Shown here one piece after another: positions 1 through 8,819 of a stretch of 10,972 nucleotides of DNA. The translations under genes and the position numbers were made by a program. Position 1 is the stretch's first letter; every line of letters starts with the position of its first letter. The notes under the pieces are model-generated. The model did no database searches. It saw nothing but the letters and a program-made list of their open reading frames with translations, and was not told the DNA's origin. Origin of the DNA: a virus (lineage: Duplodnaviria > Heunggongvirae > Uroviricota > Caudoviricetes); the IMG/VR virus record IMGVR_UViG_2541047952_000005, positions 1 to 10,972 of that record; one strand, written 5' to 3'.

Positions 1-834
1 ATGTCATCTTCCATCAAACAACAGATTAGAGATCGCAGCGAGTACATTGGTTTTATCGAAAAATGTTTTGCAAATGCGCATCAATGCTACGTTGTCCATT
101 ATTCATGTGAATCTTTTTATGATGCTGTGGGCGGTAAATCCACAAGGATCACCTCTATTGCTGTCAGAAATTTAGGCAGTGGGCAAACAGATCATTGGGC
201 TCTTAATAGATCCGCAGAATTATTAGGTCTTGATGTTTCAGATGAAAAAAATCTCGATATCCTTGAGCATCATCTATTAGATAACTACTTTACATTCCTG
301 AAAAGATACGCACAATGCACATTTCTGCATTGGAACATGCGAGATAACAATTACGGATTTCAGGCCTTACAGCATAGATTTTCAGTCCTAGGTGGCGAGC
401 CCTTTATACTTACTGATGACAGAAAACTCGATTTAGCGAGAGCTGCCGTTTCTATATATGGACGAAGCTATATTGGGCATACCGCCAAAAGTGGCCGTGC
501 AGGTAGAATGTTAGCTCTTGTTGAAAAAAATGGTATCGCTGATAAAGATGTCTTAGCCGGCGCTGAGGAAGCCGAGGCATATGTCAAAGGTAAGTATAGA
601 GAGCTAGAAATGTCTACATTACGAAAGGTCGACATACTCTGTAATATTGCTGAGCGGATTCATGATCGTACTCTCAAAACTAACAATAAATGGTTTTGGC
701 CAAGAAGCTGGCATCCATATTGGTTAACGATGAGGCTCAAAGAACACCCATTAGTGACTGGATTAATAGTTTTAGGGATTTTCTTAGGTGTAATTACCAA
801 AGGTCTAGATCTATATGCTTGGTGGCAGCAGTAA
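1..834 (+). CDS. hypothetical protein, 277 aa, with one predicted C-terminal transmembrane helix; function unknown
   Basis: ORF open from position 1 (ATG at 1-3; the true start could lie upstream of the window) to TAA at 832-834. C-terminal hydrophobic stretch LVTGLIVLGIFLGVITKGL suggests a membrane anchor. No family recognised by eye. Confidence 0.5.
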   Translation: MSSSIKQQIRDRSEYIGFIEKCFANAHQCYVVHYSCESFYDAVGGKSTRITSIAVRNLGSGQTDHWALNRSAELLGLDVSDEKNLDILEHHLLDNYFTFLKRYAQCTFLHWNMRDNNYGFQALQHRFSVLGGEPFILTDDRKLDLARAAVSIYGRSYIGHTAKSGRAGRMLALVEKNGIADKDVLAGAEEAEAYVKGKYRELEMSTLRKVDILCNIAERIHDRTLKTNNKWFWPRSWHPYWLTMRLKEHPLVTGLIVLGIFLGVITKGLDLYAWWQQ

Positions 835-1078: not shown

Positions 1079-1104
1079 TGAATCGCCACGGATAATCTAG
1101 ACAC
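1079..1104. repeat. IS terminal inverted repeat (end distal to orfA)
   Basis: TGAATCGCCACGG... matches the reverse complement of the other terminus at 2282-2307. Confidence 0.8.
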
Positions 1105-2005
1105 TTCCGAGCCGTTGATAATACTGGTTTTCATATTCTGTCGGTGACATCTGATCGCTGGAACCATGCCGACGCTTACTGTTATAAAACATTTCGATGT
1201 AATCAAAAATATCGCTGCGGGCTTCTTCCCGCGTTCCGTAGATCTTTTTCTTTATCCGTTCGCGTTTCAACAACTGGAAAAAGCTTTCTGCAACCGCATT
1301 ATCATGGCAGTTACCGCGACGGCTCATGCTGCCCTCCAGGCCGTGTGATTTCAGGAACGACTGCCACTCATGGCTTGTGTACTGACTGCCCTGATCCGAA
1401 TGAACCAGCACCTGTTTTTGGGGATTACGGCGCCATACAGCCATCAGCAGTGCGTTCAGGACAATGTCCTTTGTCATCCGGGATTGCATGGACCAGCCGA
1501 TAATTTTGCGTGAGAACAGATCAACAACCACGGCAAGATACAGCCAGCCTTCGTGGGTCCTGATGTAGGTTATGTCCGTTACCCAACGCTTATCCGGAGC
1601 ATCCGGATTGAACTGTCGCTGGAGCCTGTTGGGCGACACGATACTGGCCTCGCCTTTACGTGCCCGCGGGCTCCGGTATCCGACCTGAGCCTTTATCCCG
1701 ACACGTTTCATCAGTCGCCAGACTCTGTTCACTCCGCACTGTTGCCCGCTGTCCCGCAGATCCAGATGGATTTTGCGATAACCATAGACGCATCCCGATT
1801 CCAGCCAGAACTGTTTAATCTGCCCTGTCAGCCTCAGGTCTGCCTGATGGCGTTGTGAATGCGGCTGCTGAAGCCAGGCGTAAAAACCACTGGGATGAAC
1901 ATCCAGCACCCGACAGAGCAGGCGAACAGGCCAGCAACAGGTGTTGTCACGGATAAAGGCGTACCTCAGTCGGACAGCTTTGCGAAGTACGCCGCGGCTT
2001 TTTTT
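1097..2005 (-). CDS. IS3-family transposase OrfB (DDE catalytic domain), expressed as an OrfAB fusion by programmed -1 frameshift
   Basis: DDE motifs in the translation: WVTDITYI, VLVHSDQGSQYTS, NAVAESFF. The orfB frame has no ATG of its own and stays open upstream through the minus-strand heptamer A AAA AAA G (plus-strand T-run 1999-2005) near the end of orfA. The track's 1097..1909 start is an internal GTG. Confidence 0.85.
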   Translation of the reverse strand, partial: KKSRGVLRKAVRLRYAFIRDNTCCWPVRLLCRVLDVHPSGFYAWLQQPHSQRHQADLRLTGQIKQFWLESGCVYGYRKIHLDLRDSGQQCGVNRVWRLMKRVGIKAQVGYRSPRARKGEASIVSPNRLQRQFNPDAPDKRWVTDITYIRTHEGWLYLAVVVDLFSRKIIGWSMQSRMTKDIVLNALLMAVWRRNPQKQVLVHSDQGSQYTSHEWQSFLKSHGLEGSMSRRGNCHDNAVAESFFQLLKRERIKKKIYGTREEARSDIFDYIEMFYNSKRRHGSSDQMSPTEYENQYYQRLGSV

Positions 2006-2244
2006 AATATGTCCCGTTCGTCGGTAACCCGCTTCAGCTCTTTCTGGAGACGGCGGATCTCGGCCTGAGCATCTGACTGTTCTTTATTAGCGGAAGAATC
2101 CGGACCGTACTTCTTTATCCAGGCGTAAAGGCTGTGGGTGGTGATATCGAGACGTGTTGCAACGCTGGCAACAGAATAACCGCGATCAACAACCTGTTTG
2201 ACTGCTTCAATTTTAAACTCTTCGGGATAACGCTTACCGCTCAT
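1966..2244 (-). CDS. IS3-family transposase OrfA (helix-turn-helix DNA-binding subunit)
   Basis: Track ORF 1966..2250 begins at a GTG; an ATG at 2244-2242 preceded by GAGAGGTG is the more likely start (MSGKRYPEEFKIEAVKQVVDRGYSVASVATRLDITTHSLYAWIKKY...). Typical OrfA with HTH and a C-terminal leucine-zipper-like region ending just past the slippery site. Confidence 0.85.
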   Translation of the reverse strand: MSGKRYPEEFKIEAVKQVVDRGYSVASVATRLDITTHSLYAWIKKYGPDSSANKEQSDAQAEIRRLQKELKRVTDERDILKKAAAYFAKLSD

Positions 2245-2281
2245 GGGCACCTCTCTTTAAGCCATCTTAAATGACTCTGAG

Positions 2282-2307
2282 GTGTCTGTTAAACCCGTGG
2301 CGATTCA
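2282..2307. repeat. IS terminal inverted repeat (end proximal to orfA)
   Basis: ...CCGTGGCGATTCA; its reverse complement matches 1079-1091 exactly and 1092-1104 partially. Confidence 0.8.
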
Positions 2308-2361: not shown

Positions 2362-2708
2362 AAGATAGCAAAAAAACAACCCTACTTCATTCACCGAACT
2401 GATGGGTAGCCAATATTCATGGCGGCAATCGGCAGCGCCCCTTCGAACGTAGTGACGAGGCCGAAGGTTTTTTAATAGTGACGTCTGCGGCCGATGAAGG
2501 CTTGGTTGATATACACGACCGACAGCCACTTGTATTGTCACCGGAGGCAGCCCGGGAATGGGATGCGCCAAGACGCCGAGGCAAGGAAGCAGAAGCGATT
2601 ACCGACTACGGTGCCGTGCAAGCTGACAAGTTTATCTGGCATGCAGTTACGCGAGCGATGGGTAATGCGAAAAATCAAGGTGAATATCTTATTGTTTCAA
2701 TTGAATAA
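2362..2708 (+). pseudogene. SRAP / YedK-like (SOS-response-associated peptidase) gene remnant: 5'-truncated, one in-frame TAG, one frameshift
   Basis: Frame 1 from about 2362 reads ...KKQPYFIHRTDG*PIFMAAIGS with TAG at 2407-2409. After the C-run near 2438-2441 the similarity continues in frame 0: PFERSDEAEGFLIVTSAADEGLVDIHDRQPLVLSPEAAREW... to TAA at 2706-2708. This resembles my recollection of the C-terminal half of E. coli YedK, including the His-containing HDR motif. The N-terminal half with the catalytic Cys2 is absent. From memory, not searched. Confidence 0.55.
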
Positions 2709-2733
2709 TAATGTTTTTACCTCAAATTAGCAT

Positions 2734-2739
2734 TATACT
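2734..2739 (+). promoter_or_regulatory. possible -10 element (TATACT) for the AT-rich ORF at 2786
   Basis: TATACT lies 47 nt upstream of the ATG in an AT-rich leader; no good -35 at 17-bp spacing. AGGA at 2771-2774 is a plausible ribosome-binding site. Weak call, since AT-rich DNA gives many chance matches. Confidence 0.25.
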
Positions 2740-2785
2740 ATTTCATGCTTTATTTACACCTCTTTAAATTAGGATAACAATTATA

Positions 2786-4534
2786 ATGGAAAACTCTAAT
2801 AGCAATTTGATTGTAAAAATAGTTCATCTTCTACAATCCGAAAGAGATGGACTTATTTTTATTGATGGAAAATGGGGAACAGGTAAAACTTTTTTTATTA
2901 AAAATGTATTTCCTCGTTTTTATGATCTTAATGTGTTTTATTATATTTCATTACTAGGCGTTAAGTCTCTTGCAGATTTCAAAGCAAAGATTATTGACTG
3001 CTACTATCTTCAAGATATAGACACTCTTAAGTCTGGGTTAGATACTATTTCTGGTTTGGGTAGTGTAAGCAGTGGTTCTCCCGCTAGTGCCAATGTGCTT
3101 AATGGTGTGTTCAGTTCCATTGGTTCAAGTGTAAGAGAGAACATACTCTCCAAACTCAGTGGCATATTTATATTAGATGACATTGAGCGATTAAGCACTC
3201 CCTCACTGGCCAATGAAATACTAACTTATTGTCATTCGTTATATTCAACCTCAAAAATCTCTAGTTTGGATTTTATTGTTATATCTAATACATCTGCCGA
3301 ATCCCACCTGTCATTAGAACATAAAGAAAAAATTATTTCTGATTCACTTCATTACAACCCAAACCCTCGCGACATATTAGATATGAGAATAATTGAAGAA
3401 AAACTACAGTACTTCCCCACTGAAGACAAAATGATTTTCGAAGAAATAATATCATACCATAACATAGTTAACATAAGAATTTTAATGAGGTGTTTAAATA
3501 CTGCACTTCCATTATATTTACACGCAGAAAACCACCCTGAACTAGAGTGGAAAATCGCCTCTAAAACCATACTAAGCTCAATTTTGTCATATTTTATCTT
3601 GTTATTTATCCATAACAAATCCATGGACGAACTGATCATTGACAGCATCCAGCATATCCCACCCCAAAATTCCAGCAGCGATGAAAATCCACATGAACCG
3701 AGACTTTTGTCTACATTACACAATTATAAAATTAATATTCACCTTAAAAATTACTACAGTGGTCATGTTTCTCTTTATGATATATTGGACGATGTTTTTT
3801 ATGTGCCAACACCTTTAAGTACAATTGATATTGCAGTTTCAACTCGACCAGAACTACAGGAGACAGATGAAAAAGAATTTTTCCCCACGATTATTGGTTT
3901 AATTTCTAGAACAATACCATGTGATTTGCACCAATGGCTTAGGGCGGTTCAGAACTATGAATATTTGACTTATCATAAATATCTTCCAAAATCATCATTA
4001 CTAACATTGCAGTTCATGAGTTCTAAATCACTCGAATTTAGTGACGAGGACATTATTACTTACTTTGAATTTCATAACAACAATCCAATCAGTAGTTGGA
4101 CTAGTGGCTTTGATGATGGGAAACTTATATTTTCAATATTATCAGGCCGTCATAATAATATTGAAAAGAGAAAAAACTTAAAGACAATTAAGGAAATTAT
4201 TGAAACTGATGGTTGGGCTTTATTTGATGTTAACTTATTACTCAAATTAGATCCCATGGGAAACTATAAAACGCTAGAAGTACTTGGCGCACCATTTTTG
4301 ACCAAGTGCATTTTAAAAGAATGGAGCATTAAAGATATAGAGCAATTCAACGCTTTTTTAAGAAGTAATTATAGAATTAGTAACATATCTCAGTTTGCCA
4401 CAAATGAAAAGCAGCGCCTTATATACCTCAATCAAAAACTTGACATTTATTTCATAGGTAAGCAAGAAAGTTTTAAATATGGCGCGATATATGATTTAAA
4501 CAATACAGTAAGACACGCAATTTCTTGCCTATAA
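2786..4534 (+). CDS. KAP-family-like P-loop NTPase, 582 aa, AT-rich, horizontally acquired; candidate phage-exclusion/defence protein
   Basis: ATG at 2786 with AGGA upstream; TAA at 4532-4534. Walker A GKWGTGKT (aa 28-35) has the G-x-W-G-x-G-K-[ST] form typical of KAP NTPases; Walker B-like GIFILDDIERL about 100 aa later. The C-terminal roughly 430 aa are unrecognised and rich in N/I/K/S/Y. Composition visibly more AT-rich than all neighbours. Confidence 0.6.
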   Translation: MENSNSNLIVKIVHLLQSERDGLIFIDGKWGTGKTFFIKNVFPRFYDLNVFYYISLLGVKSLADFKAKIIDCYYLQDIDTLKSGLDTISGLGSVSSGSPASANVLNGVFSSIGSSVRENILSKLSGIFILDDIERLSTPSLANEILTYCHSLYSTSKISSLDFIVISNTSAESHLSLEHKEKIISDSLHYNPNPRDILDMRIIEEKLQYFPTEDKMIFEEIISYHNIVNIRILMRCLNTALPLYLHAENHPELEWKIASKTILSSILSYFILLFIHNKSMDELIIDSIQHIPPQNSSSDENPHEPRLLSTLHNYKINIHLKNYYSGHVSLYDILDDVFYVPTPLSTIDIAVSTRPELQETDEKEFFPTIIGLISRTIPCDLHQWLRAVQNYEYLTYHKYLPKSSLLTLQFMSSKSLEFSDEDIITYFEFHNNNPISSWTSGFDDGKLIFSILSGRHNNIEKRKNLKTIKEIIETDGWALFDVNLLLKLDPMGNYKTLEVLGAPFLTKCILKEWSIKDIEQFNAFLRSNYRISNISQFATNEKQRLIYLNQKLDIYFIGKQESFKYGAIYDLNNTVRHAISCL

Positions 4535-4541
4535 ATTGGCA

Positions 4542-4580
4542 TACTAAGTCTCAGCCGAATTGTATAACTGAGACTTAGTA
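4542..4580. terminator. stem-loop between convergent genes (13-bp stem, 13-nt loop); putative bidirectional terminator
   Basis: TACTAAGTCTCAG (4542-4554), loop CCGAATTGTATAA, then CTGAGACTTAGTA (4568-4580), a perfect inverted repeat. Lies between the end of the AT-rich ORF (4534) and the end of umuC (4658). No clean U-tract, so efficiency is uncertain. Confidence 0.45.
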
Positions 4581-4657
4581 ATCAAAAATAAGAACATTTG
4601 ATTTATCGTTTCTAATAAACTCATCCACCGTTTTCCGAAGAATCTGTCACCGGAAAA

Positions 4658-5926
4658 TCACCTGACAACGGGTAGATCAGAGAATCGGGTGGTGTAACGT
4701 GGAGAAAGTATTTCCCGTTTCATCTGCCACTGCTGCTGGATACCCTGTCCTGCAAAATACAGCGTCCCCCTCCCGCCTTTGGCATTGAGGTGATCCAGCA
4801 CTTCCATCAGTTTCTCACTGCCCGGGCGCGGCGCGTTATCATCGAACAAGTTGAGCTGAGCCACGCCCTGACTGAAGAAATCACCCAACATCACCCCGGC
4901 TTTCTGATACCGATATCCGTCTTGCCATATGGCGTCCAGACAGCGGATGGCTGCACTGATGATATCCCGACTGTCCTGCGTAGGCGTCAGAAGCTTCACG
5001 GAGGCATTATTGCCATAATAGGGCTCGTTCAGTGCGAACGGGCTGGTCTTCACAAACGCCGAGATAAAACGGCAATACTGGTGCTCGCCACGCAGTTTCT
5101 CTGCCGCCCGCGAGGCATAGCTGCAGATCGCCTGGCGCATCTCTTCATACTCCGTGATACGACCGCTAAAAGAGCGGGAACAGATAATTTCCTGTTTCAC
5201 TGGCGCGAATTCTTCCAGTGCCAGGCAGGGTTCTCCGCGTAACTCACGCACCGTTCGCTCCAGCACGACATTAAAATGTTTACGGATAAAACGGATGTCC
5301 GTATCAGCGAGTTGCAGTACGGTCTTGATCCCCATCGCCTCCAGTTTTTTCGAAATACGCCGACCGATGCCCCAGACTTCATCAACCGGCAGCGCGGCCA
5401 TCAGTTTGCGCTGGCGATCGACACTGGACAGGTCTACCACCCCGCCCGTCTGCCGCTGCCATTGTTTGGCCGCGTGGTTGGCCAGCTTGGCCAGCGTCTT
5501 GGTCTGGGCAATGCCAACACCCACTGTCAGATGCGTTCGCTGCAGAACAGTAGCACGGATTTCACGGCCAAAATCAGTCAGATCACGACAGTTACGTACA
5601 CCAGTGAGGTCACAAAATGCCTCGTCTATCGAGTAAATTTCACAGCGCGGCGACATTTCTTCCAGCGTGGTCATCACCCGGTTAGACATATCCGCATACA
5701 GCTCATAGTTGCTGCTGAAGCACACCACCCCATGGCGCCGGAAAAAGTCCTTCTGCCTGAAGTACGGCTCACCCATTTTGATACCCAGTTTCTTTGCCTC
5801 TGTGCTGCGGGCAATAACACAACCGTCATTGTTGGAAAGCACCACAACCGGCCTACCTTTGAGATCCGGGCGAAATACAGTTTCACAGGAGGCATAGAAC
5901 GAGTTCACATCACACAACGCGTACAT
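4658..5926 (-). CDS. umuC: UmuC, error-prone translesion DNA polymerase V catalytic subunit (Y-family)
   Basis: Near-full-length similarity to E. coli UmuC as recalled ([22 protein letters not shown]...[11 protein letters not shown]...[19 protein letters not shown]...[11 protein letters not shown]...). The track start at 5932 is a TTG; ATG at 5926-5924 matches the UmuC N-terminus and lies 2 nt after the umuD stop. Confidence 0.93.
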
Positions 5927-5928
5927 GA

Positions 5929-6348
5929 TCAACCCGTCGATTTCACGATGAACGTCACCACACCAAAAACATCGAGCGTTTCTTCGCTCCCGATGATGAT
6001 AGGCGACCAGGCGCGGTTTTCAGGGTTAAGCTGGACAGTTGGCCATAACTGTAGGCGCTTAACGGTAAATTCCCCGTCCACCGCAGCAATAACGATATCG
6101 CCGTGCTCTGCCTTGCGTGAACTGTCCACTACCAGTAAATCGCCTTCGCCGATCCCGGCATCAATCATCGAGTCACCAGATGCCTTAACGAAGTACGTGG
6201 CGCTGGGGTGTTGTATCAGTAGCTCGTTAAGATCGATACGCTGTTCAACGTAGTCCTGAGCAGGGCTTGGGAAACCACAGGGTACAAGATCGCCATAGAG
6301 TGGAAGCGGCTGCACTGCACGCAACCCGGAGGGAGTGAAAAACTGCAT
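5929..6348 (-). CDS. umuD: UmuD, LexA-like S24 self-cleaving accessory subunit of Pol V
   Basis: Cleavage-site context VPCGFPSPA, active-site FVKASGDSM and TVKRL lysine region are all present, resembling E. coli UmuD. The track start at 6363 is a TTG; ATG at 6348 (MQFFTPSGL...) aligns with the UmuD N-terminus and has GGTGA 5 nt upstream. ATG at 6351 is an alternative. Confidence 0.93.
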
Positions 6349-6367
6349 CATAATCACCGTCAATTAA

Positions 6368-6387
6368 TACTGATATTATATACAGTA
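6368..6387. promoter_or_regulatory. LexA (SOS) box upstream of umuD
   Basis: TACTGATATTATATACAGTA, i.e. CTG-N10-CAG with an AT-rich centre, close to the consensus TACTGTATATATATACAGTA; 20 bp upstream of the umuD start. Confidence 0.8.
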
Positions 6388-6455
6388 GTTTTTATTTAAA
6401 CGGAGATCAATGGCATTAGCCACCATCAGTCATCATCGTCGCATAACTCAATGAT

Positions 6456-7007
6456 TTACCTGGTTGCCGGAAATTTTTTATATAGCGTCGATATCCCAAC
6501 ATCGTAAATTAATGCCACACGCTGTCGTGATTCACCTGCTGCAACCAACCTTCCTGCCTGCGCCCACTGTTCATCAGTTAGCTTTGATCGACGCCCACCT
6601 ATTCGCCCTTCTTCACGAGCCGCAGCCAATCCCGCCCTGGTACGTTCGACTATCAGCTCCCTTTCCATTTCGGCAAGTGCGCCCATGACATGGAAGAAAA
6701 AGCGTCCCATTGGTGAAGACGTATCTATGCTGTCGGTCAGGCTGCGAAAGTTAATACCCTTTTCCCGAAGCTCCTCCACCAAAACGACAAGATGCCGCAT
6801 GCTGCGACCGAGTCGATCCAGTTTCCAGACCACCAGCGTATCGCCTTCAGACAGAGTCCTGAGTACTTTCTTCAACCCCGGTCGGTCAGACGTTCTGCCG
6901 CTGATCTTATCCTCGAATATCAGTTCACATCCTGCGCACTCCAGTGCGTTTCGTTGCAATGCGGTGTTCTGGTCATTTGTTGACACACGTACATAACCGA
7001 TGAGCAT
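6456..7007 (-). CDS. serine-recombinase DNA invertase (Pin/Gin/Hin/Cin family)
   Basis: MLIGYVRVSTNDQNT... (catalytic Ser in VRVST), ...DTLVVWKLDRLGRS..., ...SPMGRFFFHVMGALAEMERELI..., C-terminal HTH ...ALIYDVGISTLYKK; close to E. coli e14 PinE as recalled. ATG at 7007 with AGGGG upstream. Lies immediately outside the invertible segment. Confidence 0.93.
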   Translation of the reverse strand: MLIGYVRVSTNDQNTALQRNALECAGCELIFEDKISGRTSDRPGLKKVLRTLSEGDTLVVWKLDRLGRSMRHLVVLVEELREKGINFRSLTDSIDTSSPMGRFFFHVMGALAEMERELIVERTRAGLAAAREEGRIGGRRSKLTDEQWAQAGRLVAAGESRQRVALIYDVGISTLYKKFPATR

Positions 7008-7073
7008 GAGAAATACCCCTGTAAAAAGCCGGGATCATGCCATCTGAGCGGAATAACTGCATTTTCTAAAAGG

Positions 7074-7094
7074 TTGGTTTGGGAGAAGCCAGAT
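7074..7094. repeat. inverted repeat / recombination crossover site, invertase-proximal
   Basis: TTGGTTTGGGAGAAGCCAGAT is the exact reverse complement of 8510-8530 (21/21). Embedded in a 26-bp imperfectly palindromic site 7062-7087, TTTTCTAAAAGG TT GGTTTGGGAGAA, resembling gix/hix-type sites. Confidence 0.8.
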
Positions 7095-7836: not shown

Positions 7837-8819
7837 CAGGCATACTCCTCAACAATAACTATTCCCGGGGCACCGTCACCTCCCGATTGAGCCTCACTTC
7901 CAGCAGGTGCGCAGGCTCCGCCTCCGCCAGCACCAAAGCCCTCAGCTTTACCACCACCACGTCCTCTGAATGATGAAGAACTTGCACCACCTATACCGCC
8001 TGAACCTAATGGTGTATCCCCCCCGGTACCACCTGCTACAGCTTTAACAGAGATAACCATTGCTCCTGGTGTTTTTGCACTACAGCGAAATGCTCTTAGT
8101 ACAGTGCCGGACGATGTCGGACTGGCACCCCATGAAATACCCTGAATATATGATGTGTTTGCAGATGCTCCCCCCGCGCCACCGCCTGTACCACCAGGTG
8201 CAGTTATCATGGAACCGAAATAAGTTGTGCCACCTTCACTACCTGAATTTCTTCCGGCTCCCCCCCCTTTACCTGCAGCACCGATAATAACGTTGACTTC
8301 GAAATCATTATCAACCTCGAAAAATGCTTCAATAAATGCGCCGCTCAATCCAGCTCCGGCTGTTGCCTGCTGATTTTCTGTTGTTTCAGGAACCCCACCG
8401 CCGCCGCCGCCACCACCAGAGGCAATGACCCTTATCTTTTTTGTCCCTGGTGTTGGGATATATTTTCCAGAGCTTTTAAAAATATTCGTGTTTAACAAAC
8501 GACCAGAGAATCTGGCTTCTCCCAAACCAAGGTTTTCGAGAGCCGTTTTCACCGTGCCGTCCGATTTGATATCGCCAAACGGATTCTTGCGGCTTAACAG
8601 CAGCGCACGAAGCGCGGTAAGCAGCTGGTCATGCCGCCCCTTCTCCAGGCTGGCACCGGACGCCTCCACCACGCTACAAAGTTCTTCCTGCAACATATCA
8701 AAATAGTCATCATCCAGATCGGTGGCAGGTGTGCCGGTCTGGGGGTTACCACGGGTAAAACCGTTCTTACCCGCGCCGAACTTATCCTTCTGCGCGGTTT
8801 TCGTGTCTATGCGATGCAT
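7836..8819 (-). CDS. phage tail-fibre protein, 327 aa: conserved N-terminal about 97 aa plus glycine-rich C-terminal domain in the current orientation
   Basis: ATG at 8819-8817 with GGAG upstream. N-terminus [21 protein letters not shown]... is of the e14/Mu-like side-tail-fibre type. The C-terminal 230 aa lie inside the invertible segment and are Gly-rich (GGGGGGGG, GGTGGGAGG, GAGGGGA). Confidence 0.88.
8510..8530. repeat. inverted repeat / recombination crossover site inside the tail-fibre gene
   Basis: ATCTGGCTTCTCCCAAACCAA, partner of 7074-7094. The 26-bp site 8517-8542, TTCTCCCAAACC AA GGTTTTCGAGAG, has palindromic half-sites and lies at fibre codons about 94-102 (ENLGLGEA). Confidence 0.8.

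Follow-up and report, generated by a model that had tools for sequence, protein, structure and literature searches.

A probable relic of an SRAP (YedK/HMCES-type) gene beside intact umuDC genes in an Escherichia coli prophage region

The window, the whole stretch of 10,972 nucleotides that was analyzed, is an E. coli chromosomal segment that begins just past ssrA (tmRNA). It is 100% identical to NZ_CP062811.1 (Res13-Sevr-PER07-33; L001, the record matched by the window) except for a 1.4-kb invertible tail-fibre segment, which lies in the opposite orientation. Its genes are ordered as follows: a gene encoding a 277-aa protein, an IS3-family element, the remnant of an SRAP gene, a KAP-like NTPase gene, umuC, umuD, an invertase gene, and tail-fibre and baseplate genes. 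GC content forms a mosaic along this order, with successive values of 0.40, 0.52 (the SRAP remnant), 0.32 and 0.54. The order of genes from ssrA onward therefore marks the window as the cargo end of a prophage, with ssrA as its integration site.

The first gene after ssrA (1–834, plus strand), which always precedes the SRAP remnant, encodes a 277-aa hypothetical protein (phrog_8766) with no match in Pfam or PADLOC. It lies in a block of GC ~0.40 that stands in place of the SRAP 5' half and promoter. Directly upstream of this gene are a P4-like satellite (AlpA, Ash, primase) in assemblies L011 and L014 and a phage integrase in L008. The IS3-family element that follows (1079–2307, minus strand; 1229 bp) has TG..CA ends, carries orfA (1966–2250) and orfB (1097–1909) with the Pfam domains HTH_Tnp_1 and rve, and is flanked by two copies of a 3-bp target-site duplication, CGG (1076–1078 and 2308–2310). 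Beyond the remnant, a KAP-like P-loop NTPase of 582 aa (2786–4534, plus strand), which matches the PADLOC candidate defence family PDC-S49 (E=8e-14), sits in a block of GC 0.32 (2709–4657) that fills the slot between the SRAP and umuC stops. At the far side of umuDC, a Hin/Gin-type DNA invertase (6456–7007, minus strand) adjoins the tail-fibre inverted repeats, a 30-nt pair (7065–7094 and 8510–8539; 90% complementary) that flanks the 1.4-kb segment and forms a tail-fibre host-range switch.

The two umu genes are intact. The product of umuC (4658–5932, minus strand), the Y-family catalytic subunit of DNA polymerase V, carries the Pfam domains IMS, IMS_HHH, IMS_C and DUF4113 at full length. That of umuD (5929–6351, minus strand; Peptidase_S24) retains the Cys-Gly cleavage site and the Ser/Lys dyad context and matches residues 1–137 of E. 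coli UmuD (chain 8gmt_B, E=9e-62). The consensus of the LexA box is CTG-N10-CAG. A strict scan of the window for CTGT-N8-ACAG was negative; read by eye, the CTG-N10-CAG form is present upstream of umuD as a near-consensus LexA (SOS) box, TACTGTATATAATATCAGTA (6368–6387, minus strand). With its domains, cleavage site, S24 fold and LexA box all in place, the pair is assigned as an SOS-regulated Pol V operon.

The remnant itself (2371–2708, plus strand) corresponds to residues ~112–222 of an intact SRAP/YedK-family gene of 222–224 aa. In three-frame translation, one frame gives 'KKQPYFIHRTDG*PIFMAAIGSAP' and a second gives 'FERSDEAEGFLIVTSAADEGLVDIHDRQPLVLSPEAAREW...'; the two were joined for SRAP matching. 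The repaired translation matches Pfam PF02586 (SRAP) at positions 115–213 of the 214-position profile (E=2e-17; score 63.9 bits, cutoff 27.1), and phmmer aligns it to YedK PDB chains over residues 111–219 (E=1.8e-50). Queries with the intact SRAPs of an E. coli D9 prophage and of phage PHB10 gave exactly two tblastn HSPs in the window: one covers residues 112/113–135 in frame 1 (2371/2374–2442) and the other residues 135–219/223 in frame 3 (2439–2705). The C-terminal SRAP similarity that the earlier note had recognized by reading the letters is thus significant by Pfam, YedK and tblastn matches alike. The relic is an ordinary pseudogene that RefSeq (PGAP) had annotated previously: the PGAP feature spans the identical interval (L001 9121–9458), and in three complete genomes it is labelled 'SOS response-associated peptidase family protein; frameshifted; internal stop; incomplete; missing N-terminus'. 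We put the probability that 2371–2708 is the dead relic of a prophage-borne SRAP (YedK/HMCES-type) gene at roughly 93%.

The DNA of the relic was aligned to intact SRAP genes in two alignments (A1, A2; four genes compared), from which five lesions were tallied: the 5' end is truncated, one codon has become a stop, and three indels of a single base each (−1, +1, −1) are present. Alignment to YedK/SRAP proteins, the check that had been proposed with the earlier note, upheld both the similarity and all three lesions listed there; the count in the earlier note was short, as it missed the last two of the indels described below. Both alignments place the in-frame TAG (2407–2409, plus strand) at the codon for Gln124 of intact homologs, which is CAG in D9, PHB10 and L096 and AAG in a relic carried by Gifsy-2; the stop is thus as real as had been claimed. 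A 1-nt deletion in GCGCCCCTTC (GCGC-CCCTTC; 2434–2443, plus strand) then shifts the reading from frame 1 to frame 3. Further on is a compensating pair, also on the plus strand: an extra G (TGG-G-ATG, that is, TGGGATG, where intact homologs read T-GGATG; 2560–2562), followed by a 1-nt deletion (GCCGA-GGC; 2577–2580) at 2578/2579 that restores the frame. Between them, six codons are scrambled into DAPRRR, so that the window reads REW-DAPRRR-GKEAE against REWMRQD(I/V)GGKEAE in intact homologs; the other window frame at this pair still reads 'MRQDAE'. In addition, the invariant motif HDRRP has become HDRQP (R to Q).

Two of the indels lie in short homopolymers (CCCC at 2438–2441 and GGG at 2560–2562), and the gene could on that account be supposed intact, with the stop and frameshifts arising as assembly or homopolymer sequencing errors. 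We give this reading next to no chance. The 413-nt stretch 2308–2720 is 100% identical in nine and differs by one base in two of 11 further independent assemblies (L002, L003, L007–L015), is 100% identical in L001 as well, and shows none of its differing bases at a lesion. These 12 other assemblies comprise three complete genomes and contigs from ENA, NCBI and Logan, several of them metagenome or Logan assemblies. Identical lesions in all 12 mean that the frameshifts are not sequencing errors; the C-run frameshift that the earlier note described is therefore real, and its suggestion that a homopolymer error might account for it falls. Homopolymer errors, moreover, cannot yield the TAG or the truncation, and the 5' half of SRAP is missing from the whole window. 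Homology is thus accompanied by real, fixed disabling lesions—five in number, in 13 assemblies, with a PGAP flag—as expected of a unitary pseudogene.

The truncation was likewise correctly read as removing the Cys2 region: codons 1–111 are absent, and the edge near 2371 is sharp. The anchored match fraction is 0.80 within the relic and at background level beyond it, a phage-database search with upstream sequence matched only from 2371 onward, and no tblastn HSP to N-terminal SRAP (residues 1–111) was found anywhere in the window. A continuation of SRAP homology upstream of 2371 by way of an extra frameshift in an A7 run was considered and rejected, with Smith-Waterman scores equal to those of shuffles and match fractions at background. 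A search of phage records for the 277-aa gene and its 3' flank, aimed at finding a donor for the 5' junction, gave matches to the SRAP part alone.

The IS3-family element, lying just 63 bp upstream of the start of homology, would be an obvious agent of this truncation. Yet the genomes in which its site is empty (L002, L003, L007–L015) carry the same truncated relic with the same 60-nt non-SRAP sequence upstream, which refutes the idea, and the clean 3-bp CGG duplication indicates a simple insertion with no adjacent deletion. That the insertion at 1079–2307 cut the SRAP gene is therefore hardly credible. The site is empty in L002, L003 and all other contigs examined, and the insertion is best read as recent and strain-specific. 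Many other genomes have copies 100% identical to the element, and so do five more places in the same chromosome and the accompanying plasmid; from these chromosomal and plasmid copies it is probably currently active.

As to residual function, YedK/HMCES react with the ring-opened abasic site through Cys2, whose amine and thiol become part of a thiazolidine. For cross-link formation Glu105 ranks next in importance after Cys2; His160 aids ring opening, and Asn75 positions Cys2 (PMC9436759). The relic lacks Cys2 (there is no Met-Cys start), Asn75 and Glu105, all of which are N-terminal to its start at residue 112; of the active-site residues, therefore, only His160 remains, within DIHDRQ (2508–2525), where the next invariant Arg has become Gln. 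Nor does the relic hold an uninterrupted reading frame, given the TAG at 2407–2409 and the three indels. Judged from its sequence, it cannot yield a working SRAP, and AP-site DNA-protein cross-linking by it is predicted to be absent because Cys2 is missing.

The relic might still be retained for some other function. Its 76-aa ORF (GTG at 2478 to 2708) might encode a small protein made of the C-terminal SRAP domain, such as a decoy that binds DNA, or the relic might act as a promoter, leader or recombination anchor for the KAP-like gene. This ORF is predicted by gene callers and widespread, being indexed in 383 blocks of an assembly collection; a 78-aa PHROGs family, phrog_20165, matches exactly the relic fragment; other enterobacterial genomes repeatedly carry truncated SRAP ORFs that begin at 'MAAIGS'; and SRAP and the KAP-like gene are co-oriented and ~85 bp apart in intact cassettes. 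Against this, only one of the four active-site residues is left in the fragment, which carries both the scrambled DAPRRR stretch and the R-to-Q change in HDRRP. Its conservation mirrors the at least 99.8% identity of the relic stretch and says nothing on selection, and frequent pseudogenization would give recurrent fragments too. Promoter and terminator scans around the relic gave matches at chance level only. We consider retention for a function very unlikely, and prefer to regard the relic as dead.

The proximity of the relic to umuDC has a precedent. The SRAP family takes its name from gene neighbourhoods shared with UmuCD, ImuAB-DnaE2 and DinB (Aravind, Anand & Iyer 2013, PMC3765255), which agrees with the association with SOS and mutagenesis genes that the earlier note had invoked; the distance of about 2 kb given there also holds, the umuC stop (4658) being 1.95 kb away. 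Among related elements, the E. coli D9 prophage carries an intact 223-aa SRAP gene as the first gene after the chromosomal flank, its stop overlapping that of a convergent umuC, and phage PHB10 is arranged as integrase, SRAP and a few small genes, then umuC-umuD and tail fibre. Two Logan loci found through KAP-like homologs, L096 and L099, have an intact 222-aa SRAP gene followed by the KAP-like NTPase gene, umuC and umuD, with tail genes beyond. Window positions 2374–6390 align collinearly with L096 at 74.9% nucleotide identity, and this alignment begins exactly at SRAP codon 113. Because L096 and L099 carry all four of these genes with SRAP intact, we conclude from gene content and order that the window cassette once existed with a working SRAP.

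We surveyed 80 related SRAP loci from species-representative (GTDB) genomes (SRAP lies at ~4668–5336 in loci L016–L095). A umuC gene is found within 5 kb of SRAP at 37 loci, convergent at 30 of them, divergent at five and co-oriented at two. Together with the intact collinear cassettes and the D9 pair, these loci support the proposal of a former damage-tolerance cluster; and the contrast drawn between a decaying SRAP gene and an intact umuDC stands, the relic's lesions being real, the UmuC domains full-length and UmuD matched end to end. The opposite decay, an intact SRAP gene beside a C-terminal umuC fragment, is seen at six loci (L048, L060, L068, L055, L073 and L019), suggesting that either partner of the pair can be lost. 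An intact full-length SRAP gene is absent at 10 of the 80 loci, and the protein database holds many SRAP fragments of 95–140 aa beginning 'MAAIGS'; SRAP decay on mobile elements thus appears to be common. In Citrobacter sp. NCU1 (L035), umuDC is 92.6% identical in nucleotide sequence to that of the window and SRAP only 70.5% identical to the relic; the module is mosaic, and its partners have partly separate histories.

SRAP and umuDC are convergent neighbours rather than an operon. No AT-rich LexA box of the CTG-N10-CAG form was found upstream of the relic or of 64 intact enterobacterial SRAP genes, in a search that covered 250 nt upstream of SRAP in L004, L006, L096, L099 and 60 further loci. 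Despite the family name, enterobacterial SRAP genes may not be LexA-regulated.

At the 30 loci with convergent genes, the SRAP stop lies −1 to 4853 nt from that of umuC; the interval has a GC content of 0.32–0.46 and contains unrelated ORFs. Its occupants include a DRT UG17 reverse transcriptase (L073), PIN_12 (L070), HEPN_Toprim_N (L060) and a serine recombinase (L023). Homologs of the KAP-like protein with 58–78% identity are encoded in SRAP/umuC slots as well as at unrelated sites in chromosomes. An insertion of the KAP-like gene as part of the erosion of SRAP was considered and rejected: the same gene sits in the intact-SRAP cassettes of L096 and L099, and its arrival predates the SRAP decay. 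The earlier note mentions neither this gene nor the IS3-family element. A tentative extension of these observations, which we regard as possible though doubtful, is that a hotspot of cargo exchange, holding conflict- or defence-like genes, lies between the convergent SRAP and umuC genes found at one end of many temperate phages of enterobacteria, and that the SRAP 3' half persists, even dead, as its left recombination anchor. A literature search for a described SRAP/umuC hotspot returned nothing relevant. As a variable cargo slot, the interval might be mined for defence genes.

We propose the following history for the locus. In related temperate phages, an intact SRAP gene of 222–224 aa lies first inside one prophage end, facing a convergent umuD-umuC (Pol V) operon, with its stop overlapping that of umuC or with a variable low-GC cargo gene in between. 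The lineage of the window had a cassette of SRAP and the KAP-like NTPase gene, with umuC and umuD facing them from the other strand. SRAP then lost its promoter and codons 1–111, probably on placement of the low-GC 277-aa block between the attachment site (ssrA) and SRAP. Circumstantially, SRAP follows the chromosomal flank in D9, L096 and L099, the integrase in PHB10 and the GC ~0.40 block in the window; on these grounds, arrival of the block probably caused the 5' deletion. The remaining half gained the CAG-to-TAG change and the three single-base indels, an order of lesions that we infer, and the IS3-family element landed 63 bp upstream later, in the matched strain only.

The timing of decay can be approached through the divergence of the relic. 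At highly conserved sites, it is changed at 3 of 59, compared with a mean of 1.07 in intact genes, a weak sign of relaxed constraint. By the NG86 method, dN is ~0.10 and dS is saturated to every homolog, which leaves dN/dS uninformative on the recent branch; saturated dS with dN at this level implies that most of the divergence accrued under purifying selection. From these two lines—few changes at conserved sites, and saturated dS with low dN—the decay is estimated to be recent relative to the divergence of the SRAP family. No intact ortholog closer than 82–84% amino acid or 78% nucleotide identity was found in a search of 5.8 billion proteins, GTDB species representatives, E. coli complete genomes, phages and plasmids. 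A Lelliottia locus (L087) with a '90% best segment' was rejected as the intact ortholog of the relic: it is a different SRAP gene with a single frameshift of its own. That gene (L087 4668–5340, Lelliottia wanjuensis V104_15) is frameshifted after '...SPEAA', which marks it as a pseudogene at an early stage or else reflects an assembly error.

Compared with known systems, the relic is a derivative of the SRAP family and not a functional member. It shares its domain family with E. coli YedK (PDB 6NUA, 6KBS, 2ICU) and the human homolog of YedK, HMCES, and retains DIHDR, the His160 motif; unlike YedK, it is without residues 1–111 and is interrupted by one stop and three indels. Chromosomal yedK is only 68–72% identical to it in nucleotide sequence, and the relic sits in a prophage rather than at the yedK locus. 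With the prophage SRAP-umuDC modules of D9 (WP_073503278.1), PHB10 (QBJ00785.1), L096 and L099 it shares its position and orientation to umuC-umuD, and with the latter two also the same KAP-like gene between SRAP and umuC; their SRAPs, however, are intact (222–225 aa, starting MCGRF), whereas the window copy is 5'-truncated, disabled and preceded by the unrelated 277-aa gene. The linkage of SRAP with UmuDC was already published in 2013 (PMC3765255), where the UmuCD neighbourhood is one of the three contexts that named the family. The window differs from that neighbourhood in that the SRAP partner is dead, and the enterobacterial pairs differ in being convergent rather than operonic.

The relic matters little alone, being one further case of an accessory gene decaying among the cargo of a prophage. 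It does offer an example of a phage keeping an SOS-inducible mutagenic polymerase while dropping a protein whose presumed role is to keep abasic sites from mutagenic bypass, and it fits the idea that polymerase and shielding functions are separable on mobile elements. Salmonella phage Gifsy-2 (NC_010393.1) likewise has an SRAP relic at a prophage end, 84% identical in amino acid sequence over the first 64 residues of the repaired relic. That copy spans residues ~79–175, truncated at both ends; unlike the window relic it is open, without an internal stop, and it lies beside sseI with no umuDC nearby. The Gifsy-2 relic is un-annotated and maps to L005 2045–2350, equivalent to ~43.5–43.8 kb of NC_010393.1.
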